A stretch of DNA of 64,000 nt from Candidatus Bathyarchaeota archaeon (GCA_963780185.1 CAWABA010000001.1:1-64000), one strand, 5' to 3'. Positions 23,892 to 42,343 are shown, numbered from the stretch's first letter. Notes: generated by a model from the letters alone, not told the origin. Made by a program: numbers and translations.

Positions 23892-25325
23892 TTATTCGCT
23901 TGTGTCTTTCGGCTGAGTTGAGGTTTCTTTTTTATCGTATAGGTCGGGGTTTATTTTCGCGATTGATTGCCTTATTAAGTCACAGTAGTTCTTAACTGCC
24001 CTTTCTTGTTCTTCAAGCACCTTGTTAAGGCTCATTATCTCTTTACCAAGCTGCTCCCTTTCAACTTTAAGAGACGCCTCTAAATCCTGAACTCTCTTTC
24101 CAACATCTGAGATTTTGCTTAGGTATTCAGCAACTGCCCCTGTCGGTTGAGTTGTTTGGCTTTCCCAGTTTTCGTAAATGCCCAGTATTTGGGTTGTGGC
24201 TGCGGCTTGGATTGTTTTTTCCGGTGCCGTTTTGGCTGTTGGGGTGAGTTGTTGGGTGCTTGGCTGCTCTAAGCTGGATTTTTCAAGCGGCACGGTTATT
24301 GTCGGGTAGGTTTGGGTAGCTGGCATTTCTGGCATTTGTGTTCCGATTTTCGGTGTTGGTTTTCGTCTAAGGAAACCCACAAGTAATGTGAAAGTGAAAA
24401 AGCCTGTTGCTACTAAGAGCCACGAGAACAAGCTTATGGAGTTTTCAACAAAGGGGTTGGGTGTCGGAGTGGGTGTGGCTGTTGGTGTCGGCGAAGGGGT
24501 AGGAGTAGGCGAGGCTGTGCTGTTGCTGGCTACGGTGAAATAGACATTTTGGTTTTCGGCTGCGGGAATGTTTGTGCCGTTGTAGGTTCCTGAGTATATT
24601 GCTACATTGATTGTTCCCCAACCTAAAGCTGCATTGTCAGGTATTTGGAGGGCAGCTTCGACTTGGGTTTGATTTGAGCTTGCAATCTGGCTGTTGAGAA
24701 TTTCTGTTTGGTTAATACTTTGGCTTGTCGAGTCTTGCATGTTAATCGTGACGTTTGCTGTTTGGGCTGGTCCCTTGTTGCTCATTGTCGCTTGAACTGT
24801 AACGGTGCTGCCTGGAGAAAAGACCGTTTGATTCTGACCATGCGAATCTAGCAGACTTATTGAAGCGGCTTCTATGTTCCATTGTGTAGTAAAGCTTGAG
24901 CTTTTTGGCTGTGCGTTGTTAACCGTTGCGGTGACGTTCCATGTTCCGATTAGGGCATCTTCGTTTTGTCCTTCTATTGGCAGTCGGAAGGAAAATTCAG
25001 CTTGGCCGTTTGTTGTGGTGGTTTCTATTCTTGTGATCTTTGTCGGGTCAGCGGAGGGACCAACAATGTTGAAGGAGACAAGTACATCGGGTTGCGAAGC
25101 ATTGTTGTATGTCACGGTTGCGCGTACTCTGATTGGATCAAACGGTTGGAACGCAGTGGCTGTTGTGTTTTGATTGTTTAATATTTGCAGTTTTATCGCC
25201 CATGGGTTAGTTGTTGTTTGTGCGTGTGTTGTTTGGATGGTTTGAATAAGGGCAAGGGATAAGATTAGAATTGGCAGAACATACGCCAGATGCTTGTATA
25301 TTTTTTTTGCTTTTAGATGTGTCAA
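23892..25325 (-). CDS. single-pass surface protein: signal peptide, two Ig-like domains, PT linker, TM helix, cytoplasmic coiled coil
   Basis: Hydrophobic N-terminus ending ..THA; FRLP...IGTWNVTATV and LQIPDNAALG..; SPTPTPSPTPT; LFSWLLVATGFFTFTLLVGFLRRK; heptad-rich tail. Confidence 0.75.
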   Translation of the reverse strand: MTHLKAKKIYKHLAYVLPILILSLALIQTIQTTHAQTTTNPWAIKLQILNNQNTTATAFQPFDPIRVRATVTYNNASQPDVLVSFNIVGPSADPTKITRIETTTTNGQAEFSFRLPIEGQNEDALIGTWNVTATVNNAQPKSSSFTTQWNIEAASISLLDSHGQNQTVFSPGSTVTVQATMSNKGPAQTANVTINMQDSTSQSINQTEILNSQIASSNQTQVEAALQIPDNAALGWGTINVAIYSGTYNGTNIPAAENQNVYFTVASNSTASPTPTPSPTPTATPTPTPNPFVENSISLFSWLLVATGFFTFTLLVGFLRRKPTPKIGTQMPEMPATQTYPTITVPLEKSSLEQPSTQQLTPTAKTAPEKTIQAAATTQILGIYENWESQTTQPTGAVAEYLSKISDVGKRVQDLEASLKVEREQLGKEIMSLNKVLEEQERAVKNYCDLIRQSIAKINPDLYDKKETSTQPKDTSE

Positions 25326-25347
25326 TCGTTTTCCCTTTTTTCTGTTT

Positions 25348-26730
25348 CTAGCTTCCTTTCATTCTCTTGTTCAGGTAGTTTCTAAGCAACAATGCCCCGA
25401 TGCATAGCGCAAGATACATCGTTATAAGGACTGTAGCTGCGGCAAATGCAAGGCTCCACGAATAAAACACGACATTCGAACCGTTACTTCCTGCAACGTT
25501 CGCCATGTTGCCCATTATGTTGCTGCTTCCAGGTGAACTCTTAATGAAAACGGTTAATGATGGGAGTTGTTGACGAAAATTAAAAATATACCACCAATGG
25601 GCAGGCAAAGCATACGTGTTCGCTCCCGAATAAGTCGATATTAAGATTAAGGTTTCTCCGAGGGCAACTCCGATTCCTAACAAAATACCAGTTATAATGC
25701 CTGGCAACGCAGCATACAGGGTTACTATCCTTGCTGTCTGCCACTGAGTGGCTCCAAGCGCAAACGACGCTTCCCTGTACGACCTCGGCACGGACTTCAT
25801 GGATTCTTCCGCAACACGAATGTTCCATGGAAGCGCCATAAATGACAGTGATATTGCCGCGGCCCAGAGGCATTGGTCCCACTGCAAGGTTACCGTGAAT
25901 ATGGCGAACCCAATTATAGCAATGACGACGGAAGGTGAACCTGCAAGAGTTTCAATGAACAAGCGAATTATGCTCACTAGCCTATTTTGCGAGGAATATT
26001 CTGCAAGGTAAATTGCTGCGCCGATTCCTATTGGGACAGCTACGAACTCGCAAAAGATCACTACAAGCAGAGAACCGATTGCATAACTTAATACGCCCCC
26101 CGTTGAACCAATCGGTTGCAGTCCCCAGCATATTCTGCTTACATTTGAAATGTTAAGATTCATCGAAGTGAAAAATTGCAAAGATAAGAAAGGTGAAGCC
26201 ATCACAACTACGAATGCAACCATGACAACTACAACGCTGGCGCAAATAATTGCGGAAAGGCGCAAGCCGAGCTTCACTACGTTCTCCATTACAACCGGCG
26301 AATCCATTGTTTGATTTTTACGTCTTCTTCCGTGGAGCGTTTCAAGCGTTGCCGATATGCCGGTTAAAAGCGCGATTGGAATTGTGAAGTAAATAGGCAG
26401 CGCGTTTACGACAATTAGTAACGCTGCTATTGCAAACGTCGCAATCGACAGTTTCCAGCCTAACGAATGTCCTTCCCAAAGCAAATACGCTGAGCAAAAC
26501 AGGACAAGGCTTACCAGCATCATTAGCAACGAAAACATTATGACGGAAACATAATCATCAGCAGTTAACAGGGAAAAAGTCAAACCTTCCATGCCGTTGA
26601 TAAGGTGGATCATGCCTGGCGTCAAAGAGATAATGGCGGAAATGAAAAGCAGGGTTCCTGTCAGCAAGTTTTCCTTTTTCTTGTTTCCAAAGAAATTGGA
26701 AACTTTTGCTAACGTTGACCTAAAATTCAT
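25348..26730 (-). CDS. pstA: phosphate ABC transporter permease PstA with extra N-terminal membrane domain
   Basis: GAAIYLAEY, LAGSPSVVIA, EESMKSVP.SYREASFALGATQWQT (EAA loop), ALGET. Confidence 0.9.
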   Translation of the reverse strand: MNFRSTLAKVSNFFGNKKKENLLTGTLLFISAIISLTPGMIHLINGMEGLTFSLLTADDYVSVIMFSLLMMLVSLVLFCSAYLLWEGHSLGWKLSIATFAIAALLIVVNALPIYFTIPIALLTGISATLETLHGRRRKNQTMDSPVVMENVVKLGLRLSAIICASVVVVMVAFVVVMASPFLSLQFFTSMNLNISNVSRICWGLQPIGSTGGVLSYAIGSLLVVIFCEFVAVPIGIGAAIYLAEYSSQNRLVSIIRLFIETLAGSPSVVIAIIGFAIFTVTLQWDQCLWAAAISLSFMALPWNIRVAEESMKSVPRSYREASFALGATQWQTARIVTLYAALPGIITGILLGIGVALGETLILISTYSGANTYALPAHWWYIFNFRQQLPSLTVFIKSSPGSSNIMGNMANVAGSNGSNVVFYSWSLAFAAATVLITMYLALCIGALLLRNYLNKRMKGS

Positions 26731-26736
26731 TTTTGG

Positions 26737-27672
26737 TCACTCCATCCTGCTTTTGCCCCGATTAGCCATTATCATTCTTGCTGCAATCAGTAACGCGCCG
26801 ATGATCACAAAGAGAATGAATCCTACGGCGTAAATGCTCGGTCCAGGGCTAGCGGTTTGATCCAATGAACTTTGGTAGCCATTTTCCATGATTATGGAGA
26901 GCGTTTTGGTTTGAATCAGAGGATTCAAAATCAAAAGTGAGGGGGATTGCATAAGCGTTTGATTTATCGCGCCATTCAGTACCCAGTTGAGCGCGACCAT
27001 TTCGCCCATAGCAGCCGCGAGCGCTAATAGAACTGAAGTGACGATTTTGGGCATTGCGCTGGGTATTAAGACTTCCTTGGTGGTCTGCCATCTAGTGGCC
27101 CCTAATCCCAAAGATGCTTCTCGCAACTCATTTGGCACTGCTCTTAACGCGTCCTCTGAAATTGTTGCAATTATAGGAAAAGACATTACCATCAGAATTA
27201 TCCACCCGAATAAAATGCAGCCCTGAAATTGCAACCCGCTTTGAACATGCAAAAAATGAGTGAACGTGTAACTATAAGAGGAAGGGGTGACTAAAAGTTG
27301 CCAGCCTATTAATCCAATAACTATTGAGGGAAAACCGTCTAGCACTTCCAGAGATGTTTTTGTAAAGTTTCTAACTCTCATATCGGCAAATTCCGCCATG
27401 TAAATTGCACATGGAAGCCCAATAATCAACGCTAATACGGTTGCACCCAAAGCGAGATAAACGGTTGATCCCATAGCTATGAGAATCTGGTTGCCGGGAC
27501 CAACAACTGTTCCATCAAATATTGAAATTCCATGGAAAAAGAAACCAGTTACAGCCGGGCCCCCCATGAACGTTAAGTAGCCAATTATGGACAAAACCAG
27601 AACTATCGAAAAAGCTGCGCAAAGGAACAGGGTTGACTTGACCAGCCTTTCTTTCAGTAGTTTGCTCATCAA
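26737..27672 (-). CDS. pstC: phosphate ABC transporter permease PstC
   Basis: AIYMAEFA, LDGFPSIVIG, SEDALRAVPNELREASLGLGATRWQT, AMGEM. Confidence 0.9.
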   Translation of the reverse strand: MMSKLLKERLVKSTLFLCAAFSIVLVLSIIGYLTFMGGPAVTGFFFHGISIFDGTVVGPGNQILIAMGSTVYLALGATVLALIIGLPCAIYMAEFADMRVRNFTKTSLEVLDGFPSIVIGLIGWQLLVTPSSYSYTFTHFLHVQSGLQFQGCILFGWIILMVMSFPIIATISEDALRAVPNELREASLGLGATRWQTTKEVLIPSAMPKIVTSVLLALAAAMGEMVALNWVLNGAINQTLMQSPSLLILNPLIQTKTLSIIMENGYQSSLDQTASPGPSIYAVGFILFVIIGALLIAARMIMANRGKSRME

Positions 27673-27907
27673 TAACCCCCGCTTTTCCTTCTTCGCAACC
27701 GTGAAAAAAGCTGGAAGCTGGCAAGATAACGCTTTTCTATTTAGAATTGATAGTCTACGTAGAAATACGCTTGTAACAAGTTACCCCTCTCCTAAGACTA
27801 TAGGCTAAATTGTTCACTGTAAACTACGTCGGCAAGCTAGATATCTGCTAAGCCCGAACTTATGCTCAGAACGCGAAATCGTTCACTAGAAAGGAGAGAA
27901 ATACAAA

Positions 27908-29596
27908 TTGAATAGAACACAAAAATCATTAGTATCTATGTTAGTTTTAGCAATTCTGGCATTTTCAACAGGCGCAGCATTAGTAAACGCAGCCGCAGTA
28001 ACACAATACAGTCAGCTTTCATGGGCACAAAATTCACTGGTTACTCCAGGTACATTGACGATCTATGGTTCAAGCACAGTCGGTCCGATTGCAACAGAAG
28101 AAATTAACCAAGGGGGTTTCGTAAACTACTGGAACACTTTGGTTTCAAACAACGTAGGTTGGGGCACCGCAAGTGCTCTTGACCTCAACGCAGTCAGCCT
28201 CGCTCAGGACGGCAGCGGAACTGCAATCCCAGCATTATCATATGCAACGGGCAGCGCTGACCTTGCCGAAATGTCAAAACCACCAAGCAGCGGCGAATGG
28301 CAAACCAAAGGCATGGACAACTTACAGCTTTATGCAGTCGGCGTTGACAGTGTCGCAATCGTGGTCGATCCAACGATGACTTGGTTCCCAACTAGCCTCA
28401 CCACAAACCAAGTGGCACAACTATTCGTAGACACAACTTCTGGCACTTCTAACGGAGCTTCTTCACCCGTAAACAGCCCACAAATCACATGGGCGGACGG
28501 TGTAACTAACGGAACACAAGTTAACCAAGGAACACAAGGCAGCACAGGTACAACAGCAAAATACGTCACATGGGGAGATTTCCTCACTGCTTACTACGCA
28601 CCAAATCCCATTCCAAGCACAGTTCCAACAAGTGTCTTGACACAGAACATTAACCGCGCTGTCAGAGATCCTACCTCTGGAACCTTTGACTGCTTCAACA
28701 ACTACTTCGCAGTACCAAACGGCTACCAATTTGCGTACAAAGCACCTCCAGCAGGATCAGCCGACTTAACAAGCACAGTAACAACGGTTCAGGGCTCACA
28801 AGAAATGGCTCCATTCACTTACTGTAAAGAAAACTCAGATATCTACAACACAGTTAAGGCAGGCAACGCAATAGGCGGCGACTACATCGGCTTCATATCA
28901 CTGGGCTACCTCCAAACCTACGGCAATCACGGCGCAAACATGATCGGCCTCAACATCGCATTCAACATGGCTACAGTAGCACAAGGACAAACATCGCCCC
29001 TCATCAAATACTATGGCACTTCTGGCACACAGGGTTTCGTCGGAAGCTCAGTTCTTGCCTCTTGGGGTTCACCTGTCACACCAACCGACGCTAACGTCAT
29101 CTGGGCATACACGGGAAACCAAGGTTCTGCCACCGGTAAATACGAGGCATGGAGATGGCTATGGGAACTTGCACCTGGCGCAATCCCGTCAACTGGTCCA
29201 CTGTTATCCGCAGGCGTTTGGATTTCATACATGATGGCAGATAAAACTACCACCACCGGCATGGTTGCAGTAACACCCGGCACTGGAACCAGCAACTTTG
29301 TTGCAGACCAAAACTACATCTCACTCGACCGTGACGACATGGCAGGTCCAGCGAATAACGTAATCGACTCTAACCTAAACTCATACACACCCAAGGCAAC
29401 TCAGACTCAGACAATCCCCGACGGCAAAGTCAACATGAACGACATCAGCTACTTCGTGACAGCTTACATTGCATACAACTCACAGCACATCTACAACCCA
29501 TACGCCGACATGGACGCAAACGGGCACATCAACATGAACGATGTCTCATCATTCGTTTCAACCTACATAGCATACTACGGAACCTACATCAAATAA
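27908..29596 (+). CDS. pstS: phosphate-binding protein PstS-like with C-terminal dockerin
   Basis: Signal peptide; IYGSSTVGP, GSGTAI, DLAEMS, VGVDSVAIVV, R..TSGTFDCF, IGFISLGY; C-terminal duplicated Ca-binding repeats DGKVNMNDISYF / DMDANGHINMNDVSSF; divergent from pstC. Confidence 0.85.
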   Translation: MNRTQKSLVSMLVLAILAFSTGAALVNAAAVTQYSQLSWAQNSLVTPGTLTIYGSSTVGPIATEEINQGGFVNYWNTLVSNNVGWGTASALDLNAVSLAQDGSGTAIPALSYATGSADLAEMSKPPSSGEWQTKGMDNLQLYAVGVDSVAIVVDPTMTWFPTSLTTNQVAQLFVDTTSGTSNGASSPVNSPQITWADGVTNGTQVNQGTQGSTGTTAKYVTWGDFLTAYYAPNPIPSTVPTSVLTQNINRAVRDPTSGTFDCFNNYFAVPNGYQFAYKAPPAGSADLTSTVTTVQGSQEMAPFTYCKENSDIYNTVKAGNAIGGDYIGFISLGYLQTYGNHGANMIGLNIAFNMATVAQGQTSPLIKYYGTSGTQGFVGSSVLASWGSPVTPTDANVIWAYTGNQGSATGKYEAWRWLWELAPGAIPSTGPLLSAGVWISYMMADKTTTTGMVAVTPGTGTSNFVADQNYISLDRDDMAGPANNVIDSNLNSYTPKATQTQTIPDGKVNMNDISYFVTAYIAYNSQHIYNPYADMDANGHINMNDVSSFVSTYIAYYGTYIK

Positions 29597-29630
29597 AATC
29601 ACGAAACCGCGATGAAAGGAGAACTAAAAC

Positions 29631-31973
29631 ATGAACATCAAAAAGCTTAAACCAAAACAAATAGTGGCCCTGGCACTGGCCCTTTTTATGGTCGTGCCAA
29701 CGCTACTTGTAGCGATGCCTATCGTCAAAGCTACCAACCCAATACCCTACCTGAGTATTGTTCCGCATGGACAGACCACAGGTAGTCAAGGCACAACCAA
29801 CTTTGCTGCTCTAACTACAGGTCAAACCTTTTCCGTTGACGTGCGAGTGGACAATTACTTTGGCACTAACATAGGCGGTGCAAACGACGGAGTCAGCTAC
29901 GTAAGCTACACGGTCCATTGGGATCCCACTGTCCTGAAAGAAACAACCAAATCTGACATCTCTTGGCTTCCTGACCAATCAAACATGGGTGACGTCGCTG
30001 TGGATAACACGAACGGCTACCAGACAATCGGTCAACTATGCTTCGGCTCAGACTCACAAGAAGCCGCTGACAGCTCAACTGGATCAGTATCAGCTACTCT
30101 AACCTTCCAAGTGCTTTCAACTGGCTCAACTGGCCTTACGCTTCAGCCAAGTGATGTTGGCGTTGCGTACCTTAGGGCACCAGAAACAGTCGACAACGCA
30201 AACCACGATGTCATCGGAACACTCACATACAACGCGCTATACAACCCAGTAACAGCCATCAGCCTGTACCAATCAGGAACAAGCACCAACATAATCCAGC
30301 TCTCAGGAAACCCAATCGGGCAAAGCTTCACCGTTGACGTATACATCAACAACCCGCTTGCAGTAAACATTTGGTCATGGAACTTAGGCGTTACATGGAA
30401 CGCAGCCGCACTACAATTGACACAAATATCGGAAGGATCTTTCATGATTGGCGGAACCTCCACAATGTTCGTACCAGGCTACGTAGACAACAATGCAGGC
30501 AACACCCCACAGGGAATCAGCGACGTTTACCTCGACGACGTAACAACAAACGCACCCGCAGGCGTCTTAGCAACTTTAACCTTCCAAGTGATAAACTACG
30601 CAAACAGCAACATAAATCTGGTTGCAGGAATCCCAACCCTTCAAACAATCACAGGAAACACCCCCAGCGCAATCACACCAGCACCAGTCCTCAGCAACGC
30701 ACAATACATCACAAGTCCACCCCCAGCACCAACAAGCCCAGTTGCAAAAATCGCAAATCCAGACACAAGCCCAATAACCGTCTACACAAACGGCTATACA
30801 ATCCCCAACAGCTTCAACCCGAATGCACCCATTGACCTTAGCGCCTCACAGTCATTGCCCGGAAACGACGTTGTTCCAAACCCCAGCACACCTACATTCG
30901 CAATCTCAACCTATCAATGGACTGTCACCCAAGGAAGCAGCCTCTTAACCCTAACGAACCCATCTGCCGAAGCAATAAGCTTCAACGCACCAACAGTTTC
31001 CTCGCTGACCACTTTCACCTTGCAACTCGTAGTCTCAACCGCAGCAAACGCAGGTGACCAACTCTACAACCCAGTTAGCACCCCAGTCACATTATCATTC
31101 ACAGTCGCACCACCATACACAAACCCCAACAGCAACGGAGCACAAGTAGACCTCTACGTCGTAAACCCAACAACCGGAACAACAACAAACCCCATAGAGC
31201 TTCCAAACGGAGCAGGCGCCAACGCAGCATGCGACGCTTTCGGTCCACAAGAACAGATGAACCTTGCCGCATTCGTAACATTCAACGGTGCGTCAGTAGC
31301 TAACAAAGAAGTAGCCTTCCAGATTTCAGACAACCATGGCAACGTAATCGCAACCGTAACCGCATTAACCGGCGAAAACGGAATTGCAACAACAAGTTAC
31401 CGACTCCCATGGTTTGACGGCAGCTACACAAGCGGACCCCAAAGCGAATTCGGAACCTGGAACGTATATGCATCAGTTGAAGTTCAGCAAACAATCGTAA
31501 GCGACACAATGCCATTCGACTTCGGCGACATAATCAGCATCACCGGCGTAACAGTTGCCTCAAGCATCCTACCCAGAAGCACAACCACCACAACAACCGA
31601 CAACTCATTAACCGTTGGTCTTTCAGGAATCTCCAACCAGCTACAAGCCTACTACATAACCTACACAGTGTATGACGCAGGAAACGTACCAATCGCAACA
31701 GGCCTGATCCAAGGCACAATGGCAGCAGCAACATACACAGGCACAGGATCAGCAGCAACAGCAGGAACATTCACCGTCACATCAAGCACAGCAAGCAAAA
31801 GTGCCTCATTCGCGATTCCATCATATGCATTCGTCGGCGGCGCAACAGTCAAAGTTGACGTATTCAACGCAGACCCACTCAACGCACAAAACAAAGCTAA
31901 CCCAGCAAACAACGCAATCGCATACTGCCCAGAAGTACCAGCAACCTTCACAATAGCGATACCCTTCAGTTAA
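29631..31973 (+). CDS. secreted scaffoldin-like protein: two cohesin-like domains, PKD-like domain, two Ig-like domains, no TM anchor
   Basis: GQTFSVDVRVDN..VHWDPTVL..ATLTFQVLSTGST and GQSFTVDVYIN..WNAAALQLTQISEGSF..GVLATLTFQV (cohesin pattern); LSASQS..YQWT (PKD-like). Confidence 0.72.
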   Translation: MNIKKLKPKQIVALALALFMVVPTLLVAMPIVKATNPIPYLSIVPHGQTTGSQGTTNFAALTTGQTFSVDVRVDNYFGTNIGGANDGVSYVSYTVHWDPTVLKETTKSDISWLPDQSNMGDVAVDNTNGYQTIGQLCFGSDSQEAADSSTGSVSATLTFQVLSTGSTGLTLQPSDVGVAYLRAPETVDNANHDVIGTLTYNALYNPVTAISLYQSGTSTNIIQLSGNPIGQSFTVDVYINNPLAVNIWSWNLGVTWNAAALQLTQISEGSFMIGGTSTMFVPGYVDNNAGNTPQGISDVYLDDVTTNAPAGVLATLTFQVINYANSNINLVAGIPTLQTITGNTPSAITPAPVLSNAQYITSPPPAPTSPVAKIANPDTSPITVYTNGYTIPNSFNPNAPIDLSASQSLPGNDVVPNPSTPTFAISTYQWTVTQGSSLLTLTNPSAEAISFNAPTVSSLTTFTLQLVVSTAANAGDQLYNPVSTPVTLSFTVAPPYTNPNSNGAQVDLYVVNPTTGTTTNPIELPNGAGANAACDAFGPQEQMNLAAFVTFNGASVANKEVAFQISDNHGNVIATVTALTGENGIATTSYRLPWFDGSYTSGPQSEFGTWNVYASVEVQQTIVSDTMPFDFGDIISITGVTVASSILPRSTTTTTTDNSLTVGLSGISNQLQAYYITYTVYDAGNVPIATGLIQGTMAAATYTGTGSAATAGTFTVTSSTASKSASFAIPSYAFVGGATVKVDVFNADPLNAQNKANPANNAIAYCPEVPATFTIAIPFS

Positions 31974-33252: not shown

Positions 33253-33256
33253 ATTC

Positions 33257-34546
33257 ATGACCAAAAAAATCATCTGCCAACTGACAATCATCCTCATCCT
33301 GTCCTTCTCCATTATCTCATTGATTCCCAACGCCAAAGCTCAAACGCAACCAACACTTTCTCTTACCCCCTCAACAGTTCCCATCACACAACTCAGCCAA
33401 ACTTTCACTTTAGATGTCTCAATTTCTAACGTCCAAAACCTTTGGCAATGGGACGCCGCAATCGCTTGGGACCCCACGGTCCTAACTCTTCTTAACACCC
33501 CGCAAGAAGGAGCTTTCATGACGCAGGCGGGCACCACGATGTTTATTGCTATCCCTCCAGGAAATGGAACAGTCTCAGATATTGACGATACACTAATGAC
33601 TTCAACTGGAGCAAGCGGAAACGGGATCTTGGCGATACTCCACTTCCAAGTAATAGGGCAAAGTGCAACGACATCCGTTCTGCTTGACAACATCACCCTT
33701 GAAGGTCCCCTTCCAGCTGGATCAACCACGGGAACAGCGCATCCAGTGATAACGCCAACATCCACTTCTTCAACTGCGACAATCACCTTTGTATCAGGCG
33801 GCGCCCCCGCAGCTAACGCCGGCACGGACCAAACAGTACAGCAGGGAACAACAGTTACGTTCGATGGCTCAGGGTCGGTCTCGTCAGGGTCCTCTCCGGC
33901 GTATTCTTGGTCATTCATGGATGGCGGCGTCAAAAAAACTCTCACAGGCGTAGCTCCAACCTACACGTTTAGCACTCCAGGCGTATACGTCGTCACCCTA
34001 GCCCTCATGGACTCAAACGGCAACAGCACCTCCACGGTAACGATAAAAGTGCAAAGCAACAGCAAACCAGTCGCAGTAATCGCCATAGACGGCTTCAGCC
34101 AAGGGCAATCTGCCACCGTCGGGCAACCAATTACTTTCAACGGCACAAAAAGCAACGAAGCCAACAACGGAACGATAGCAAGATACCTGTGGGACACTGG
34201 AGATTGTTCATCAGGTACAAACGCAACTTTAACCCACACTTACTTGGTGCCGGGAACCTTCAATGTGACATTAACAGTTTTTGACGCAACCGACCTCAAC
34301 GGCACCGCGTGCATCCAACTCATCGTCGCGAAAAACCCAAACCAAACCCCAACTCCCACACCTAGCACTACAACGCAAACACAAACCTCCAGCCCCGACC
34401 CAACCTCAACATCAACTCCCACTGCAACGCCTCCATCAAACTACAATCCTCAAACAAGCTTACCGACAGCTGTTTTGGCAATCGTGGTAATAACTACAAT
34501 TGCAGTATTCGGCGGCTCAACGGTTTGGCTACGAAAAAGAACTTAG
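33257..34546 (+). CDS. membrane-anchored cohesin + two PKD domains, PT linker, C-terminal TM
   Basis: QTFTLDVSISNVQNLWQW...WDPTVL...EGAFM...GILAILHFQV; ANAGTDQTV..VTFDGSGS..YSWSF and GQPITFNG..YLWDTGD (PKD); AVLAIVVITTIAVFGGSTVWLRKR. Confidence 0.78.
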   Translation: MTKKIICQLTIILILSFSIISLIPNAKAQTQPTLSLTPSTVPITQLSQTFTLDVSISNVQNLWQWDAAIAWDPTVLTLLNTPQEGAFMTQAGTTMFIAIPPGNGTVSDIDDTLMTSTGASGNGILAILHFQVIGQSATTSVLLDNITLEGPLPAGSTTGTAHPVITPTSTSSTATITFVSGGAPAANAGTDQTVQQGTTVTFDGSGSVSSGSSPAYSWSFMDGGVKKTLTGVAPTYTFSTPGVYVVTLALMDSNGNSTSTVTIKVQSNSKPVAVIAIDGFSQGQSATVGQPITFNGTKSNEANNGTIARYLWDTGDCSSGTNATLTHTYLVPGTFNVTLTVFDATDLNGTACIQLIVAKNPNQTPTPTPSTTTQTQTSSPDPTSTSTPTATPPSNYNPQTSLPTAVLAIVVITTIAVFGGSTVWLRKRT

Positions 34547-34701: not shown

Positions 34702-35493
34702 ATGAAGAAATTCGTGTCAGTATTTTTCATCGTCGCATTCGCTTTAACTATCTGTATTGTGGTTGAGCCTTCACATGCAGCCACGACAACGACAATAACC
34801 GTTGACTCAAGCACCCAACAGTTTCCATCAGCCAAAGTTGGAGACACCATCCAAGTCAATATTTTGATAAACAACGTACAAGGTCTCTGGGCTTGGGACT
34901 TACCTGACATAATGTTTAATCCTGCGGTCTTGAACATAACCGGGATTACTGAAGGACCATTCCTGAAAGCTGCAGGTCAAACCATGTTCTTATGGACCTC
35001 AAGCTCCGCCCTTGCCTTCAGCCAAGGCGACATACCAGACACTGCAGACACACTGATGGAGTACACCACCGCAAGCGGAAGCGGAGTCCTCGCAACACTA
35101 TCCTTCAAGGTTCTGTCCCTAGGCACATCGCAGATTACTTTCAGCCAAACAACCCTATTAAGTTCAACAAACCTTGGATCAATCTCTAGCCCTAACTATC
35201 AGCAGATTAACTGCACAGCCACCGATGCTACAATAAGCGTAGGAGTTACTTCTATCCCCACAGCAAGCCCCACGCCAAGCCCAAGTTCCAGTCCAACTTC
35301 CAGCCCAGCAGCTGCCTCATCGCCTACGGCTTCGACAACTCACGACGCTCCATCTTCAAGTGATCCATCGGCAACCCCAATCTCGCAAAAAGTCCCAGAA
35401 TTCCCAGTTATGTCAATCCTGATTGGCGTTTTGGCGGTTGCAACTATCTCAGCGGTGCTGGCAGGTAAAAAAGCTAAGTTTAATACGAAATAG
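34702..35493 (+). CDS. cohesin protein with S/T/P linker and PEF-CTERM-like sorting signal
   Basis: VGDTIQVNILINNVQGLWAW...FNPAVL.ITGITEGPFL...GSGVLATLSFKVLSLGTSQI; ends VPEFP + hydrophobic helix + KKAK. Confidence 0.8.
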   Translation: MKKFVSVFFIVAFALTICIVVEPSHAATTTTITVDSSTQQFPSAKVGDTIQVNILINNVQGLWAWDLPDIMFNPAVLNITGITEGPFLKAAGQTMFLWTSSSALAFSQGDIPDTADTLMEYTTASGSGVLATLSFKVLSLGTSQITFSQTTLLSSTNLGSISSPNYQQINCTATDATISVGVTSIPTASPTPSPSSSPTSSPAAASSPTASTTHDAPSSSDPSATPISQKVPEFPVMSILIGVLAVATISAVLAGKKAKFNTK

Positions 35494-35813: not shown

Positions 35814-37464
35814 TTGAAGCGCAAAAACTTAGTTGGTTTGGCGCTGGTTTGTATCGTGGTTGCTTCAGTTTTTGCCTTAACTACGCGTTTCATTGATGCC
35901 CAAACTGCTCCAGTTCTAAGCATCGTGCCCACGGGCGCGAGCGGCGCATCGGGCACCACAATTATTTCGTCTCAAGCAGTCGGCACCACTTTTTCTGTTG
36001 ACGTTCGTTTAGACAACTACGCAAGCGTTAATGTTGGAGGCGCCAACAATGGTGTGAGTGAGATAAGCTATCTGGTACATTGGGATCCTGCAGTTCTGAC
36101 GGAAACAAATTTAGTTCATAATTCTTGGCTTCCTGACCAATCAAAGATGGGTACTTTACCTGTCGACAATACAAATGGCTATCAGACTGTTGGCCAGATT
36201 TGCTTCGGCTCGGATTCTCAAGAGACTGCTGACAGCTCAACGGGGTCAGTGTCTACTACCCTAACGTTCAAGGTGCTCTCTGCTGGTACAACCGCTCTTA
36301 CTCTTGCGCCAAGCGACGTCGGCGTCCCATACCTTTCTGCTCCATCGACAGTCGATAATAAAAACCACGACGTAACGGGAACAATCACATTTGACGCGCA
36401 GTACGGATTATCAACTTCACCTACGCCCATAACTTCTATCCCTCCCAGTCCCACGCCAACACCTGGGTCAGTTTACAGTCCGACCGCTGTCGTCTCAACT
36501 CAAAACGGAACAGTGTTCCAAACGGGTAGTCAAATAGTTCTGGACGGCAGTTCCTCAACGCCCGGATCGGACAACCAAATATGTCCAATAACGAATTATG
36601 CTTGGCTGGTTCAATATCCTGATGGTTCCCGATTCAACGCGGCCAGTGGCTCCATTGTATCGATCGTCGTGAACACTACAACGTCTCTTCGAGTAAACCT
36701 GATAGTAACAGCAAAAGATGTTAACACGTCCCCTAGCCCTCAATACGTGAACACCTCAGCAACAAGCATTTGGATAAATGTTGAACTGCCTCAACAAATG
36801 ACAAAACTTGACGTTTTCACCAATAAAGGCGGGACTGGACCAAATACGTCCAGCGGACCCTTTGGGCCTCAAGAACTGGTTCGATTATTCGCCTATGTTT
36901 CCTTCAACGGAGACTCCTCAACCCAACGAAAACGTTGTATTCACCGTGATTAATCCTAACGGGACAATTATCTCTGTACAGGCAACACTCACTAATTCAT
37001 CGGGTTATGCCTATTCGGACTACAGAACGCCGAACATTGGGACATCAAATTTTGGGACATGGACTGTTTTGGCTTCTGTAGATGTCAATCAAGTAGTAAT
37101 GACTGACTCAGTTACTTTTGAATACAATTACCTTGTCACCGTTAACGACATAACGTTGCCTGCAAGCGTCCACCGGCAATCCTCCGTGACCATCAATTTA
37201 GCTATTCAAAACACCGAAAACTACACGTCCTCAGCAACCATCACCATAACGGTTTACGATCAAAACGACGTACCGATTTACTCCTACCTGACTACCGTAA
37301 ACAACTTGGCTAACACAGGGTCAATTTCAACAACATTCACCATTCCCTCAACAGCTTTTGTCGGGCAAGCAACAGTTTACGCCAACGTTTTAACCACTAA
37401 TCCTTTGTCTGGCGGAGTTCCTTTCTGCCCTGAACGAACAGCAAATTTCCAAATAATATCCTAG
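35814..37464 (+). pseudogene. cohesin + PKD-like + two Ig-like domain protein, split by one frameshift near 36912
   Basis: ORFs 35814-36953 and 36808-37464 join into a paralog of 29631/37501 (FNG|TPQPNENVVF) if one base is removed; could be a sequencing error. Confidence 0.7.
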
Positions 37465-37500
37465 GCGAAAAAAAAAATGAAGTCTCGGGAGATGAACTGA

Positions 37501-38757
37501 ATGAAACGCAAATCACTGATGTGCTTAATCTTAATTGTCATAGTAGTTTTTTCTGTTTTTTCTATGACTACCCGCTTTATCGACGCCGTGAATAATCCAG
37601 TTTTAAGCGTCGTCCTTTCAGGTACTACGAGCACAAATTCTATTTCCTCAGCCGTTGGAGCAACTTTCAATGTTGACGTCCGCGTCGATAATATCGGCAG
37701 TGTAACTCCAGGCGTAAATTGCGTCAGTTACGGTTTAACTTGGAACCCTGCGGTTCTATCATGCACAGCTAAAAGCGATAATTCTTGGTTGCCCAGCCAA
37801 TCAAGTATGGGCGATTTGCCCCTTAACAGCACAAGCGGGATGGAAATCATCGGTCAAATTGCCTTCGACATAAGTAACCCTGCGGCTTGTGCAACAACTG
37901 GCGGCGTAAGCGTCAACTTTACCTTTCAAGTAGTCTCAGCGGGCACCTGCACTATTGGGCTTCAGCCCAGCGACGTCGGCGTCGCATACCTCACCTATCC
38001 AGATAGCCAAGGCAATAGTCATAATGTCGTCGGAACCACAACATTGAACGCAACGTTCACTTCGTCGGCTCCATCCAATTCTTTAGTTAACATCGACGTA
38101 TTCACCAGTAAAGGCGGCGTCGGCAAGAGTGCAAGCGGCGGGGCATACGGACCCCTTCAAATGGTCCCGACTTACGCCCTAGTTACTTATGGTGGCGCTT
38201 CAATGCCTAACGAAAATGTCATGTTCACCATACTTGACGCAAACGGAACCTCTTACTATAGGCAAGGCGTCACAAACGAAAGCGGCGTCGCGACGATTCA
38301 ACCCAGCTTTCGGCTTCCCGCACCCGATTATGGTTCTCCTCATACAAGCTTTGGAAAATGGTCAATAACTGCTTCAGTCACCGTGTCGGGAGCAACAATG
38401 AGTGACAATGTAACATTTACTTTCGCCTACTTGACCGGCATAGGAAACGTAACAATCCCAGCCAGTACCCACAGAAACGAATCCCTACCAATTCAACTCA
38501 CAATAAACAATCAGGAGATTTCTGCCCAATGGACAAAGCTAAGCATTACGCTGTTTGACCATGCAGGCGCGCCCATCGGCTCCTCCATCATAACGGCATC
38601 TGGGCAAACAGAAAATATCACCGTCGTGGACGCAGCCATCACTATACCCTCATGGGCATTCACCGGGCAAGCAACCGCATACCTGTGTCTGCTCTCTAAT
38701 TCAACAAACGTTCCATTAGCCCCCGAAAGTACAGCAAAGTTCAACATCCTATCCTAA
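37501..38757 (+). CDS. secreted cohesin + two Ig-like domain protein
   Basis: GATFNVDVRVDN..WNPAVL..SWLPSQSSMG..QPSDVGVAYL; DVFTSKGG, FRLP..FGKWSITASV, TIPSWAFTGQATAY. Confidence 0.78.
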   Translation: MKRKSLMCLILIVIVVFSVFSMTTRFIDAVNNPVLSVVLSGTTSTNSISSAVGATFNVDVRVDNIGSVTPGVNCVSYGLTWNPAVLSCTAKSDNSWLPSQSSMGDLPLNSTSGMEIIGQIAFDISNPAACATTGGVSVNFTFQVVSAGTCTIGLQPSDVGVAYLTYPDSQGNSHNVVGTTTLNATFTSSAPSNSLVNIDVFTSKGGVGKSASGGAYGPLQMVPTYALVTYGGASMPNENVMFTILDANGTSYYRQGVTNESGVATIQPSFRLPAPDYGSPHTSFGKWSITASVTVSGATMSDNVTFTFAYLTGIGNVTIPASTHRNESLPIQLTINNQEISAQWTKLSITLFDHAGAPIGSSIITASGQTENITVVDAAITIPSWAFTGQATAYLCLLSNSTNVPLAPESTAKFNILS

Positions 38758-38939: not shown

Positions 38940-39352
38940 ATGCGGAATGTCGTTTTGGCAGCTCTTTTAATTTTTCTTATAATGACTTCAACCATTTACG
39001 TGGACGGGGCTTTTTTCTCTCAAGCACATCAAGTCACAGTCAACGCCGCAACGACATACCACTTTGTTGCAACTGGTTCTCCCGCTTCAGTGACCGCTGG
39101 GCAGTGAAAGGCGCCTCCGACGGGGCATCAGGCACGGCACATTTGACAGTAAAAAATGTGGTTTTAACAGCGGATTTGAATCACGACGGCAAAGTCGACA
39201 GCCTTGACCTCATGTACTTTGTTTATGCTTACAACAATTTTGGTGAAAACGGGATTGTTGGCCCCATCTGCGATTTTAACCATGACGGGCAAATAAACTT
39301 CCATGACTTGGTGTTATTCGTACTTGCTTACATAGCATACGAGAAAAGCTAA
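38940..39352 (+). pseudogene. remnant of a secreted dockerin protein (signal-peptide ORF 38940-39107 plus out-of-frame dockerin ORF 39104-39352)
   Basis: MRNVVLAALLIFLIMTSTI...HFVATGSPASVTAGQ* followed by ADLNHDGKVDSLDL / CDFNHDGQINFHDLVLF. Confidence 0.65.
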
Positions 39353-39808: not shown

Positions 39809-40336
39809 TTACTTTGGCAACCCTGCTTGAGAATCAAATCTTGCAAAAAGAAAATAAACCAAAATTCCATCTACAAACAACCCTGCAAACGATGCGGGTG
39901 CACCAACTGCTCCCAAATACAGAAACTGAACAAACTGGAAGCAAGCGGCCAACGCAAACATCGCCAACGCAGTAAAGCGAGCAAGCCTATGTCTAACCCA
40001 AAGTCCCAATCCTACAAGCAGAAGGTCCAGCCCGATAAGCCATGAAACTAATCCGATTGTTGACGTGCTCAAATTGGCTAGTTGCCCGATGTAAAATGGG
40101 ATTCCAGGTACCCAGTTGACGGAAGAAACTACCGTTTGGACTGCCTGACTTGATGCGCCTTTGACCGTCAAAATTAGGAAAAGCCCACCGATGATTAAAA
40201 CTACTCCGAATGTTATGACTAATTTGCTGATTAAATCGGTGATGAGTGGGCGGTCTGACGTGTACTTTCTGAGCTTGTTTATTGCGTCGGTAACTGGGGA
40301 AATATAGTCTTTTACTCCTTGCTGCATCTTTATCAC
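39809..40336 (-). CDS. four-TM membrane protein, translationally coupled to phoU
   Basis: Four hydrophobic segments; GLGLWVRHRLAR motif; start overlaps the phoU stop. Confidence 0.7.
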   Translation of the reverse strand: MIKMQQGVKDYISPVTDAINKLRKYTSDRPLITDLISKLVITFGVVLIIGGLFLILTVKGASSQAVQTVVSSVNWVPGIPFYIGQLANLSTSTIGLVSWLIGLDLLLVGLGLWVRHRLARFTALAMFALAACFQFVQFLYLGAVGAPASFAGLFVDGILVYFLFARFDSQAGLPK

Positions 40337-41388
40337 ACGAGTATTGAATCTACTGTTAAGTTCAGCACGATTTCGGCGATGTCGCAGGAATATTCAGCTG
40401 TTCTTCTGATGCTTTCAATAATCAGTCGCAGACTTGCGATGTCTTCAGTGTCGATTTGGGATGATGCAACCGCTTCCCGCTCTAAAATCCCAACTTCCTT
40501 AATGCTTTCTATGATTGTTTCAGCTCGGTTGTAATCTTGCCTGAAAAGTGACTCCATTGCAGTATCAAACATTTTAATCGCTACAGCGCTCATTTTCTCT
40601 ATTTTTCCTGAAACATCGCTGTCCAATTTGTGTTTGAGCGTCAACACGTTTTCAGCTATCTTAACAGCGTGGTCTGCGGTTCGTTCAACGGACTTGGTCA
40701 CGAGACGGTAACCCAAGCAGTCTTTGCCGCTTGCAAGACCAATTTCTTTGCTTACACGGGGGTTTTGTATCGCCGTCTTTAACTGCCTTATTACGTAAAG
40801 ATTGAACCTGTCTACTTCATTATCTGTCGTTATTACGTCCTTGAGCGATAAGTTGTCGTTTGAGCCGAGGCATGATATCGCGTCTTTATGCATCGACGTT
40901 GTAATTATGCTCATTCTTCGAAGAGCACTTTGAATGGTCAATTCAGGGTAGCTTAAAAGAACCTGCAGCATCAACTGAACAGAAGTGTCAGTCACGATTT
41001 CGGTTCCAACAAGCATCCGCCGCACAAAAGCCTTCACGTCATGCCTCTGATTGGACGATAAGGATTGTTTATCTGATTTAATATGAATAGAGTTGTAACC
41101 CGACAAATATGCCGACACGATCTTTCTATTGATCATTTCAGTATCATCATTAGCGGAAACCAGAATCGTGGCTTCATCTAGCCTTTTCTGAACTCTTGAG
41201 CTTGGAGGAACAATCGTTAACAATCCGCTTTCTTCTTCATGAAGTTTAATGAAACTTCCCTTTTTCAGTTGATTTTGAGCTATCCAGTTTTTCGGCAGCG
41301 AAATAATATATGTGGAACCACCTGTAAACTGAATTTTCCGTGTTTCATCGTCCACTTTTGCCTGCCACAAACTTAGCCCTTCTCTCAC
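40333..41388 (-). CDS. phoU: archaeal phosphate regulator: AbrB-like N-terminal domain plus tandem PhoU domains
   Basis: RKIQFTGGSTYIISLPKNW (AbrB-like), YLSGY, DNEVDRF, SVERTADHA, SIRRTAEYSCDIAE. Confidence 0.9.
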   Translation of the reverse strand: MREGLSLWQAKVDDETRKIQFTGGSTYIISLPKNWIAQNQLKKGSFIKLHEEESGLLTIVPPSSRVQKRLDEATILVSANDDTEMINRKIVSAYLSGYNSIHIKSDKQSLSSNQRHDVKAFVRRMLVGTEIVTDTSVQLMLQVLLSYPELTIQSALRRMSIITTSMHKDAISCLGSNDNLSLKDVITTDNEVDRFNLYVIRQLKTAIQNPRVSKEIGLASGKDCLGYRLVTKSVERTADHAVKIAENVLTLKHKLDSDVSGKIEKMSAVAIKMFDTAMESLFRQDYNRAETIIESIKEVGILEREAVASSQIDTEDIASLRLIIESIRRTAEYSCDIAEIVLNLTVDSILV

Positions 41389-41590
41389 TTAACCAACAAG
41401 TACGTTTTGCCCTAATTGAATTACATAATAAATCTCTTCGCTAAAGAGATTATATATTAAATTATAATCTATGATGGCTATTGTGGAAACCAATATAACC
41501 CGCACGCTTCCCAGTGACTCCCCGGGGAGAGTAGCATTTCCCATTAAGCAAACAGAATAAACGCTAAATCGGGTAAGGAAAGGAAAAAAC

Positions 41591-42343
41591 TTGGGGAAAG
41601 TCGAGACTAGAAAATTCAATCTTTGGTTTAAAAATAATCACGTCCTCAAAGACATCGATTTAAACATTAAAGAAAACGCTGTCACGGCGATCATGGGGCC
41701 TTCAGGCTGCGGCAAATCGACGCTTCTGCGTTCAATCAACCGCATGAACGATCTCATCAACGGTTGCCGCACAACAGGAGAGATAAGGGTTGACGGACAA
41801 AACGTCTACGCTGACGGCAACAACGTTTACGATTTAAGAAGAAGAATAGGCATGGTTTTCCAAAAACCCAACCCGTTCCCCAAATCCATCTTCGAGAACG
41901 TGGCTTTTGGCCCCCGAATTCACAGCATGGCAAAAGGCGAAAAACTCGATGAACTTGTGGAGAAAAGCCTCAGAGGCGCCGCTTTATGGAACGAGGTCAA
42001 AGATCGACTAAACGAAAGTGCCTTTTGCCTTTCAGGAGGGCAGCAACAGCGGCTTTGCATTGCGCGTGCGTTGGCGGCGGAGCCTGAGCTTATTTTGATG
42101 GATGAGCCGTGTAGCGCTTTGGATCCTGCTGCGACTGCGCGCATTGAATCGCTTGCTGTGGAGCTTAAGCAGAAGTATACTGTTATTATTGTGACTCATA
42201 ATTTGCAGCAGGCGGCTAGGGTGTCTGATTTTACTGCTTTTATGTATGTGGGTGAGTTGGTGGAGTATGATGATACGAAGTCGTTGTTTGAAAACCCGAA
42301 GAGTGAGTTGACTCATAACTATATTACTGGGCAATTCGGTTAG
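41591..42343 (+). CDS. pstB: phosphate ABC transporter ATPase
   Basis: [67 protein letters not shown]. Confidence 0.96.

Follow-up and report, generated by a model that had tools for sequence, protein, structure and literature searches.

How is a binding protein kept beside its transporter when it carries neither a lipid nor a membrane anchor of its own? One locus within the 64,000 nucleotides of Bathyarchaeia DNA analyzed here (the window) raises this question: pstA and pstC, on the minus strand, are followed by a gene for a phosphate-binding protein (PstS) that ends in a dockerin, then by a run of secreted genes, and then by phoU and pstB. A preliminary description had put secreted cohesin and dockerin genes between pstC/pstA and phoU/pstB, a gene order that we can affirm, and had read the whole as a phosphate-scavenging analogue of the cellulosome. 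We arrive at a plainer reading, and as a full explanation, we hold it to be probable: the locus would encode a second, accessory Pst importer in a Bathyarchaeia archaeon, with a dockerin in place of the membrane anchor of PstS, in addition to the conventional Pst copy that the same genome has on contig C6 (locus L001).

Table 1. Features of the locus and its flank, by position in the window; in the text, genes are named by their first nucleotide
Feature	Position	Strand	Basis or remark
Polyphosphate cluster: ppk2-like, ppx-like, CHAD-metallophosphoesterase-HD, ppk1, CYTH	14865..23128	.	adjoins cassette
Signal peptide, Ig-Ig (MG2-like), TM helix, cytoplasmic tail	23892..25325	-	TM 299-317
PstA permease	25348..26730	-	best TIGR00974, 171.8 bits (cut-off 193.45)
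PstC permease	26737..27672	-	best TIGR02138, 164.9 bits (cut-off 196.45)
Two conserved upstream elements, divergent pstC/pstS gap	27728..27845	+	27728-27765 and 27798-27845
PstS, signal peptide and C-terminal dockerin	27908..29596	+	PstS ~residues 40-480, dockerin ~499-562; AF2, Foldseek, PF00404
Main scaffold: cohesin 1, cohesin 2, PKD-like, Ig-Ig tail	29631..31973	+	PF00963 27.1 bits, two stretches
Ig-Ig module and intact dockerin	32215..33252	+	PF00404 25.4 bits; Ig-Ig HHalign 99.1%
Cohesin, PKD, PKD, Pro/Thr linker, TM anchor	33218..34546	+	PF00963 25.9 bits; PKD_4 114.9 bits; TM 418-436
Cohesin, Ser/Pro/Thr linker, PEF-type C-terminal anchor	34702..35493	+	PF00963 37.5 bits
Cohesin-PKD-like-Ig-Ig, one gene	35814..37464	+	ORFs 35814-36953 and 36808-37464; one-base frameshift near 36915
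Cohesin (class 1) and Ig-Ig tail, no anchor	37501..38757	+	AF2 pLDDT 87.9
Remnant of large dockerin-tagged surface protein	38940..39352	+	signal-peptide ORF at 38940; dockerin 39104-39352
Four-TM protein, function unknown, conserved beside phoU	39809..40336	-	
AbrB/MazE-PhoU-PhoU regulator	40333..41388	-	PF04014, PF01895
PstB ATPase	41591..42343	+	TIGR00972 395 bits (cut-off 343.2)

A Divergent PstS and Its Dockerin

The product of 27908 has a single hydrophobic segment (residues 8-26), and it lacks a lipobox because its only two Cys residues lie inside the mature domain, which bears out the earlier remark that this PstS homolog has a signal peptide without lipobox or TM anchor. Is it a phosphate-binding protein? 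Single-sequence searches gave no periplasmic-binding match in Pfam and no match in the PDB, and the domain was recognized by profile and fold searches: the first 10 profile matches are phosphate ABC binding proteins, and with the AF2 model (pLDDT 86.7, pTM 0.87), the top 39 among the Foldseek matches listed, down to rank 49, are all phosphate-binding (PstS, PBP, or DING; best E 5e-12). As modeled, the protein has a type II periplasmic-binding fold whose nearest neighbors are phosphate-binding proteins. Its score against TIGR02136, 31.6 bits under a curated cut-off of 206.6, marks a divergent PstS; shorter homologs do pass PF12849, and PstA and PstC, like PstS, fall under their own NCBIfam cut-offs. 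Nine phosphate ligands are predicted (S55, S56, T57, S103, S123, R253, S257, G258, and T259), onto which S11, T12, S13, S41, S59, R125, S129, G130, and T131 of Clostridium perfringens PBP-1 map by way of homolog P0092 and alignment A1. All nine are kept or conservatively changed, and they are invariant or at least 90% conserved among homologs. Judged from sequence and model, the domain would bind phosphate in an all-Ser/Thr/Arg pocket like that of PBP-1.

The C terminus is a dockerin, as had been proposed, and so it is in 92 of 94 PstS homologs, their C termini judged by eye. The model has the duplicated loop-helix repeat (helices 510-525 and 543-560), and the PF00404 score is 23.1 bits against a cut-off of 22.9 (19.7 in a whole-protein scan), the three dockerins of the genome scoring 23.1, 25.4, and 29.6. 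The proposed pair of complete Ca-binding repeats does not hold up: loop 1 (QTIPDGKVNMND) is degenerate and without its position-1 Asp, and the tail falls short of the two complete loops that define type I in the criterion quoted from PMC12484212. That Asp is absent from 64/64 PstS dockerins and present in 78/78 others; in loop 2, the position-12 Asp is missing in 13 of the 64.

Cohesins, Anchors, and Linkers

What could such a tail dock onto? Pfam and profile scans of the whole 2.75-Mb genome find six cohesins and three dockerins, every one of them within the locus, so their clustering is not chance. Two of the cohesins are in 29631, and 33218, 34702, 35814, and 37501 have one each; no chain has more than two, and the anchored chains have one apiece. 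The PF00963 cut-off of 24.1 is passed by 34702, 33218, and 29631 (as a whole protein) and not by 35814 (18.7-21.5) or 37501 (15.5), the weakest by Pfam. Structure prediction had been suggested as a check of the cohesin fold, and 37501 folds as a cohesin: its residues 31-191 superpose on 6kgc_A with a VIA-align Z of 15.7 (rmsd 2.3 Å, 138/144 residues aligned), and the top 16 rows of a structure search with this domain are all cohesin entries, the archaeal 2xdh among them. Foldseek with the three-domain model returned mostly generic multi-Ig matches. Domain 1 of 29631 and the cohesin of 35814 are 44-61% identical to the class of 37501, and the profile of this class matches cellulosomal scaffoldin cohesins.

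Seven secreted genes with at least six cohesins and two more dockerins had been counted. The six cohesins stand; the third dockerin belongs to a deletion remnant, and two of the ORFs are one frameshifted gene. The remnant matches the two ends of a 1110-aa relative, residues 5-90 in frame 3 and 1007-1089 in frame 2, the middle being deleted, and its dockerin scores 29.6 bits in one PF00404 scan and 41.1 in another. Both halves of 35814..37464, when frames are compared, align to 37501 and 29631, and the counterparts in relatives are intact at ~550 aa; the frameshift is either real or an assembly error. Contigs of two DNA runs cover 18/30 and 14/30 bins thinly and list no indel, in pieces that span neither the frameshift nor the deletion junction.

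Two cohesins had been called membrane anchored. For 33218, the TM helix is there; for 34702, the PEF-CTERM label is approximate, the C terminus having a VPEF motif and a TM segment and scoring 20.3 bits against TIGR04296 (cut-off 25), the only match to that family. The genome has one exosortase-family gene (PF09721, above cut-off) and 17 PEF-like C termini by pattern, one or two of them probably spurious. The main scaffold, 29631, has one hydrophobic segment and neither anchor nor dockerin. A candidate membrane anchor for the unanchored scaffolds is 23892, on which the preliminary description did not remark: its Ig-Ig module is homologous to the scaffold tails (HHalign 99.7%), and genes of its type are present in 26/26 assessable loci with Ig-tail scaffolds and in 0/6 loci with a cohesin-dockerin adaptor, a second dockerin class. 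The two arrangements are mutually exclusive (26 vs. 6 loci), the six adaptor loci representing only about two lineages. The Ig-Ig-dockerin protein 32215 is probably a linker between scaffold and anchored cohesin; in the ESM Atlas, the best match to its Ig-Ig module, 0.84, is a lead only. Complex prediction for the PstS dockerin (residues 496-562) and cohesin 1 of 29631, both entered as alignments, scored 0.06 where the mark was 0.32, with controls that did not fold either, and so speaks neither for nor against docking.

Transporter and Regulation

The cassette PstA has an N-terminal hydrophobic extension of ~150 aa, its 38 relatives running to 425-491 aa; the canonical PstA on C6 has 293 aa and lacks these residues; homology between the extension and the four-TM protein was ruled out (HHalign 0.2%). 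The two elements upstream of pstS, found by pattern in 28/42 (first) and 37/42 (second) other loci, are probably promoter or regulator sites. Matrices built without the window score its elements at 42.6 and 70.8 bits, and the next genome matches reach 10.5 and 14.6. A motif common with the conventional pst operon was ruled out, as that promoter is not among the top matrix matches. The second-best match, at just 14.6 bits, lies upstream of a DUF47/PhoU_div gene and is a weak lead. Within the polyphosphate cluster, CHAD, ppk1, and CYTH have a Pfam basis, and ppk2 and ppx are named from sequence; at least one polyphosphate gene lies beside the cassette in 8/11 extended genome loci. An Rfam scan of 10000-46000 found tRNA and no other family.

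What Relatives Keep and What They Exchange

A survey of relatives for pstS-dockerin beside cohesin genes had been called for, and the linkage is conserved: a cohesin ORF lies at most 700 nt downstream of, or is fused to, pstS-dockerin in 59/63 assessable copies, P0068 and P0098 being PstS-dockerin-cohesin-cohesin fusions. Compact loci have just two or three cohesins. The counts of adjacency, co-occurrence, dockerin type, and cohesin class were made after 27 locus ids had been set aside: the short copies L002-L011, two loci of other systems (L001 and L015), the merged L012/L013, and 13 repeats or overlaps (L017, L018, L019, L021, L024, L027, L030, L033, L043, L054, L055, L062, and L068). Two matches in bacterial-labeled assemblies do not count as signs of a transfer to bacteria: the flanking genes of L026 are 53-68% identical to those of this archaeon, and the flanks of L025 hold too few genes for a judgment.

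Two types of dockerin are distinguished, and within a locus they match. The type equals that of PstS in 26/26 Ig-Ig-dockerin genes, in 33/36 cargo genes, and in all 23 far-side dockerins (beyond pstC/pstA) of 12 loci; two large cargo dockerins are of the type opposite to their own locus. On the trees of the PstS domain, PstC, and PstA, the type switches 10-11 times, and strong branches force at least 7-10 of these switches; within PstS, the signal is concentrated at residues 509-548, the break falling where PstS meets the dockerin. By best BLAST to the domains of the window, 49 class-1 cohesins fall in F-type loci and 1 in an S-type locus. The split by type is as strong across the whole downstream block, with its Ig domains, as in the cohesins (17.6-18.3 vs. 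11.4-19.9 identity points), so some of the matching could arise from linkage and recombination, with no selection for binding needed.

Other Readings

Might PstS be docked for some other end? The locus could be an adhesion or surface-coat island under phosphate control, with the docked PstS an adhesin, buffer, or sensor that delivers little phosphate to PstCAB, and this we consider unlikely. The cargo is rich in Ig, beta-propeller, beta-helix, and InlB repeats, and among 30 proteins of relatives' loci (mostly dockerin-bearing), no enzyme family passes its cut-off (Polysacc_lyase, 20.9 vs. 29.9 bits) and no phosphatase, phytase, nuclease, or CAZyme cargo was recognized. A conventional PstS is kept in 10/10 carriers checked, as it is on C6. 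Pseudomonas aeruginosa under phosphate limitation has adhesive appendages rich in PstS/DING, a role for PstS outside the cell and beyond transport (PMC2242829; PMC3949141); these differ in being bacterial and Hxc-secreted, and the abstract of PMC2242829 mentions no cohesin or dockerin. Cell contact has been suggested for ANME cohesins and dockerins in a passage of Timmers 2017 (PMC5244752). Against the adhesion island, wherever a locus is long enough to show it, pstC and pstA almost always adjoin pstS-dockerin, even in compact loci free of cargo; the phosphate ligands are invariant or nearly so; and a homologous cassette with up to three cohesins per chain, beside an OppA-type SBP_bac_5-dockerin gene of other genera in 17 of 20 picked loci, accompanies a whole oppBCDF operon.

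PstS might instead be let go and recaptured, loading phosphate afar (on mineral or in biofilm) and returning to type-specific cohesins much as siderophores and hemophores return, a shuttle that we find quite improbable. The lack of any covalent or TM anchor suits it, the degenerate Ca loop peculiar to PstS dockerins could weaken binding, and the two types alternate among close relatives as lock-and-key variation would; yet cohesin-dockerin bonds are described as strong, archaea included, in the sections of PMC9012536 on these modules, which cite archaeal pairs reported to bind, PstS-cohesin fusions exist, and a 60-kDa protein would be costly for one phosphate. Very unlikely indeed is a locus with the right folds and no docking, where the tail lies against PstS or has another partner and the genes are mere island neighbors: degenerate loop 1, borderline Pfam scores, an AF2 model that is confident across the PstS/dockerin junction with no flexible linker, and block-wise linkage that can mimic coevolution would allow it, and what speaks against it is the adjacency with its fusions, the 26 loci with 0 PstS vs. 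Ig-Ig-dockerin mismatches despite at least 7 switches, the far-side dockerins, and the confinement of the genome's every cohesin and dockerin to the locus.

Comparison with Known Systems

For ANME archaea, dockerin-tagged binding proteins on scaffoldins were proposed by Chadwick et al. 2022 (PMC9012536), whose text names NikA/OppA and TroA with C-terminal dockerins, to be localized by multi-cohesin proteins, and whose S4 Data hold an ANME-2a protein, HOHHFJHI_01811, that joins TIGR02136 (residues 2-279) to a dockerin (284-339). An archaeal secreted binding protein with a C-terminal dockerin, accompanied by multi-cohesin proteins, is what we find here as well. The lineage is another one, and the ANME PstS is canonical (252.9 bits by TIGR02136), unlike the divergent one here; section 32 of that paper is without PstS, gene linkage, anchors, dockerin types, and an Ig-Ig linker, and in our case, a single conserved locus unites the transporter with its regulator, scaffolds, and anchors. 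The preliminary statement that no such system was known from any description must be given up for dockerin-tagged ABC binding proteins, one PstS-dockerin included, and can be kept for the locus itself. The literature on dockerins and cohesins in Bathyarchaeia, with PstS, with substrate-binding proteins, and outside cellulosomes does not describe it, subscription papers (e.g., Peer et al. 2009) and bioRxiv supplements lying outside that scope. A noncellulosomal cohesin of Archaeoglobus fulgidus (PDB 2xdh) is likewise archaeal, at Z 14.9 to the 37501 model. It belongs to a small isolated gene pair that is not known to have a client or a transporter link.

With cellulosomes (Acetivibrio/Clostridium thermocellum, A. 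cellulolyticus, Ruminococcus), which are built from scaffoldin, adaptor, and anchoring scaffoldin, the locus shares the cohesin fold (Z 14-15.7), the dockerin repeat, anchored and unanchored cohesin proteins, and, in compact loci of relatives, a second dockerin class on adaptors. It differs in that dockerin-bearing carbohydrate-active enzymes are not recognized in the locus or in relatives' cargo, that the many-cohesin scaffoldin with a substrate-binding module is absent (no chain exceeds two cohesins, and Pfam finds no CBM), that the client is a transporter binding protein, and that the anchors are TM or PEF-type rather than SLH or sortase. The preliminary description saw no CAZyme domain, and there is none by Pfam in the locus, where Pfam also recognizes no glycoside hydrolase or CBM, nor does it do so in the cargo examined. 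Its phosphate analogue of the cellulosome is an overstatement: no catalytic cargo is recognized, and because the cassette also accompanies OppA-type proteins, it is better read as a general tether for ABC binding proteins. The conventional archaeal PstSCAB-PhoU on C6 has the same PstS fold, PstC, PstA, PstB, and AbrB-PhoU regulator; its PstS has an N-terminal hydrophobic anchor and a Pro/Thr linker in one chain, whereas in the cassette, the anchor and the binding domain are divided between proteins.

A Proposed Mechanism

How might the tethered importer work? By their signal peptides, PstS and the scaffold proteins would be exported, and the PstS dockerin would then bind cohesins of its own locus, a step well supported by predicted folds, adjacency, fusions, and matched types. 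The docking proposed earlier survives in this form; its multiple copies on a scaffold stay a conjecture, no chain here offering more than two cohesins. Among the cohesins, class 1 is the likeliest to be bound, and PstS probably docks onto the anchored ones as well: with their flexible Pro/Ser/Thr linkers, 33218 and 34702 would keep it at the membrane in a geometry like the TM-linker-PstS of C6, so that docked PstS could reach PstCA-PstB. Co-occurrence suggests that 29631, 35814, and 37501 attach by their Ig-Ig tails to 32215, 23892, or both, which would add a few more sockets, and variable dockerin-tagged surface proteins may share the same ones. The cassette would be a lineage-wide tethering device for ABC binding proteins, here in a version for phosphate that PhoU probably controls along with the polyphosphate genes. 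Counting against this explanation, this genome has a frameshift in one cohesin gene and a deletion in one cargo gene.

One can imagine more, at rather long odds: phosphate starvation could induce a fiber or lattice of Ig-Ig scaffolds on 23892 that carries many PstS as a phosphate antenna, and the exchanged types could be private lock-and-key codes against capture of secreted binding proteins by neighbors. If so, Bathyarchaeia would have a modular, plug-in nutrient-receptor surface for phosphate and peptides, with strain-level switching of specificity.

What the Tether Would Mean

What cohesins and dockerins do outside cellulosomes is called an open question in the passages of PMC5244752 and PMC9012536 that take it up. 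In this locus, the client can be named, a dedicated transporter and regulator accompany it, the anchors are defined, and specificity comes in two natural types, which opens matched and mismatched pairs to tests on small recombinant domains. Designed scaffolds, too, could make use of an orthogonal cohesin-dockerin pair. If our reading is true, docking would join lipid and TM anchors as a third means of keeping ABC binding proteins on an archaeal cell, and since relatives of the scaffold gene occur in 113 of 332 genomes of the family, the tether may be widespread in a group that is abundant and uncultured.

Results

A predicted phosphate-uptake locus that holds all of the genome's cohesins and dockerins

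Three dockerins and six cohesins were found in the whole of this 2.75-Mb, 93% complete genome with Pfam and locus-built profiles, and because every one of them falls inside the single locus tabulated here, their clustering is not due to chance; the earlier count of at least six cohesin-like domains holds. GC at the locus (0.42-0.49) is the same as in the remainder of the window, which is the beginning of contig C1, and 16 of 18 named records of related loci carry the label Ca. Bathyarchaeia or Bathyarchaeota, so that the organism is probably one of the Bathyarchaeia. The locus is also seen in two bacteria-labelled assemblies (L025 and L026), the latter probably mis-binned archaeal sequence, given its archaeal-looking flanks.

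Features of the cassette locus, its surroundings and related sites (window positions unless a locus or contig is named; genes by ORF start)
Feature	Position	Strand	Content
tRNA-Gly	12894-12970		just upstream of AAA ATPase gene and phosphate island
Polyphosphate cluster	14865-23128		ppk2-like, ppx-like, CHAD-metallophosphoesterase-HD fusion, ppk1, CYTH; directly upstream of cassette locus
Minus-strand group		-	23892 (Ig-Ig-TM), pstA (25348-26730), pstC
Two conserved elements	27728-27845		intergenic pstC/pstS
Small inverted repeat	about 27872-27886		GAACG-N4-8-CGTTY, just before pstS ribosome site
Plus-strand group, in order		+	27908 (pstS-dockerin), 29631 (two-cohesin scaffold), 32215 (Ig-Ig-dockerin), 33218, 34702, 35814/36808, 37501, remnant 38940-39352
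After remnant			four-TM gene and phoU (-), then pstB (+)
CinA-like gene (named from sequence)	46132-47053		apparently two ORFs
Further secreted, Ig-rich, TM-anchored proteins	47022-51641		next to ECF-type S-component-like gene (named from sequence)
Conventional pst operon	L001:4285-10146 (G000:C6)		pstS-pstC-pstA-pstB-phoU, AbrB-PhoU regulator
Contractile-tail-like cluster adjoining it	L001:12364-16567		sheath, tube, tail-assembly-like ORFs (named from sequence)
Weak second match of upstream elements	G000:C11:203174		upstream of DUF47 gene
Opp-linked locus of a family member	L015:813-19546 (G288)		SBP_bac_5-dockerin, oppBCDF, same scaffold genes

The cassette is often flanked by phoU, pstB and polyphosphate genes, and may be under phosphate control. 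The polyphosphate cluster is a frequent companion, and the inverted repeat recurs in 30 of 43 loci. The tRNA-Gly is a possible integration site. PstA carries a conserved hydrophobic N-terminal extension of about 150 aa; homology between it and the adjacent four-TM protein was considered and rejected. The CinA-like gene is seemingly split, so the assembly may contain further single-base errors.

The binding protein and its docking modules

As a single sequence, 27908 is weak in searches (TIGR02136, 31.6 bits) and matches nothing in the PDB. A profile from 83 homologs has phosphate-binding proteins as its first matches, and the structural matches listed for the AlphaFold2 model (pLDDT 86.7) are all PstS, PBP or DING down to rank 49. 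The nine phosphate ligands described for C. perfringens PBP-1 (PMC5381212) map to S55, S56, T57, S103, S123, R253, S257, G258 and T259, all invariant or nearly so among homologs. Profile, fold and ligands bear out the preliminary description of 27908 as a PstS homolog, and, the signal peptide being its sole hydrophobic segment, it was rightly said to lack a membrane anchor.

Three cohesin genes exceed the Pfam cut-off, and the dockerins reach or exceed it. Structure prediction, which had been proposed as a check, gave a phosphate-binding-protein fold for 27908 and a cohesin fold for the weakest cohesin, 37501: its residues 31-191 match cohesins at Z 15.7 and 2.3 Å rmsd, the best 16 structural matches being cohesin entries, and its tail is modelled as two Ig/MG-like sandwiches. 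PstS does end in a dockerin, as claimed, but not one with two complete Ca-binding loops, since loop 1 lacks its position-1 Asp in 64/64 copies; the residue is present in 78/78 other dockerins. (A dockerin with two loops is described in PMC12484212.) Two further dockerins had been reported, and both were detected, but one, in the remnant, is part of a deleted gene; a single gene is split between ORFs 35814 and 36808. This leaves the genome with two intact dockerin proteins and five or six cohesins. Four large cohesin-bearing proteins (P0136, P0142, P0150 and P0193) have in common with PstS the dockerin and the segment that precedes it; the tail of one scores above cut-off for a Polysacc_lyase family (45.1 bits), and others give weak LamG-like matches.

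Linkage and anchoring among relatives

By eye, 92 of 94 PstS homologs end in a dockerin. Among the 63 loci retained once duplicates were removed, a cohesin ORF lies within 700 nt downstream of, or is fused to, 59/63 assessable pstS-dockerin copies, so the linkage expected of Bathyarchaeia relatives is there; two exceptions are additional copies, the main copy of the locus adjoining a cohesin in both cases, and in the other two (L029, L053) the available DNA of the locus holds no cohesin. In P0068, PstS, dockerin and two cohesins form one protein with no signal peptide between them, and P0098 is similar. The system is patchy: of 332 family genomes, 27 have a full-length or split match, 24 of these belonging to its own genus, and a single-protein query of 301 class genomes gave nothing outside the family. 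Conventional PstS is also present in this genome and in 10/10 carriers tested.

Two cohesin proteins (33218 and 34702) are anchored in their own right; the remaining three carriers lack an anchor, and share instead the Ig-Ig tail common to 32215 and 23892 (HHalign 96-99.7%). Where loci are long enough, 26/32 have 23892 and Ig tails without an adaptor, whereas in 6/32, representing about two lineages, both are missing and a cohesin-dockerin adaptor is present, its dockerin belonging to another class. These appear to be alternatives for one link.

Two dockerin types

We typed dockerins by a single residue, position 10 of repeat 2, which we take from cellulosome work to be a recognition position: large hydrophobic is F (43 loci), small is S (20 loci). 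The type of PstS is matched by Ig-Ig-dockerin genes in 26/26 loci, by cargo genes, the variable surface proteins of these loci, in 33/36 cases (one of the mismatches comes from a gene truncated by the end of its locus) and by dockerins beyond pstC/pstA in 23/23 cases over 12 loci, all counts being over relatives and hence non-independent. FastTree trees place 11 type changes on the PstS domain, 10 on PstC and 10 on PstA, of which strong branches force at least 7, 10 and 9, respectively. Within PstS there is next to no type signal up to residue 500; it peaks at 509-548, across both repeats. Our reading is that the dockerin probably moves with the scaffold block rather than with its own binding domain. 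F loci contain 49 cohesins closest to window class 1 and S loci a single one, a difference that reflects divergence, not absence, because the best-BLAST reference genome is F-type. The block's Ig domains split by type as strongly as its cohesins, so type matching owes something to linkage.

Discussion

The cassette is real and conserved, and what is it for? We think it probable that PstS is docked locally, a model built on observed folds, residues, anchors, linkage and type matching, and one in which we infer every binding step as well as the delivery of phosphate. The PstS dockerin would bind cohesins of its own locus, the anchored cohesins would keep PstS close to PstCAB via flexible linkers, and Ig-tailed scaffolds would supply a few extra sockets, used also by variable surface proteins. 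That the cassette is instead an adhesion layer, which would fit the Ig, beta-propeller, beta-helix and InlB-repeat domains carried by 30 proteins from relatives' loci, mostly dockerin-bearing, strikes us as unlikely. We give still less credence to PstS as a shuttle that is released and recaptured, and least of all to a PstS that does not dock to cohesins.

Parts of this picture have precedents. Chadwick et al. 2022 (PMC9012536) describe, in ANME, scaffoldin-like proteins as well as NikA/OppA and TroA binding proteins that bear dockerins, and their S4 Data hold one PstS-dockerin entry, unnamed in section 32; Timmers et al. 2017 (PMC5244752) call ANME cohesins and dockerins plentiful and their role unknown, and Zaborina et al. 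2008 (PMC2242829) report appendages rich in PstS. The claim that no such system had been described thus stands for the locus, on which, as on Bathyarchaeia cassettes, a search that covered few subscription papers returned no paper, but not for its components. New with respect to the literature searched are the operon-level link to Pst, the swappable types, with a break where PstS joins its dockerin, and the existence of two alternative routes to anchoring.

The proposal of a phosphate-scavenging analogue of the cellulosome goes too far: none of the 30 proteins has an enzyme family above cut-off, and the cassette also serves OppA-type binding proteins. In its working it resembles a cellulosome's anchoring tier, without itself being a cellulosome. 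In one family member, the scaffold genes of the cassette stand behind a dockerin-tagged OppA-type binding protein and oppBCDF, and homologous cohesin/Ig-Ig cassettes are linked to such genes in many further genera of the family; relatives of that Opp-linked scaffold gene occur in 113/332 family genomes and 42/70 genera, and cohesins in 185/332 genomes. In loci of other genera (L105-L124), hand-picked from strong matches and biased accordingly, 17 of 20 contain a dockerin-bearing family-5 binding protein (13 recognised by BLAST and another 4 by Pfam). With such clients in other genera, the cassette is, we conclude, a tether of general use that has phosphate as one of its clients.
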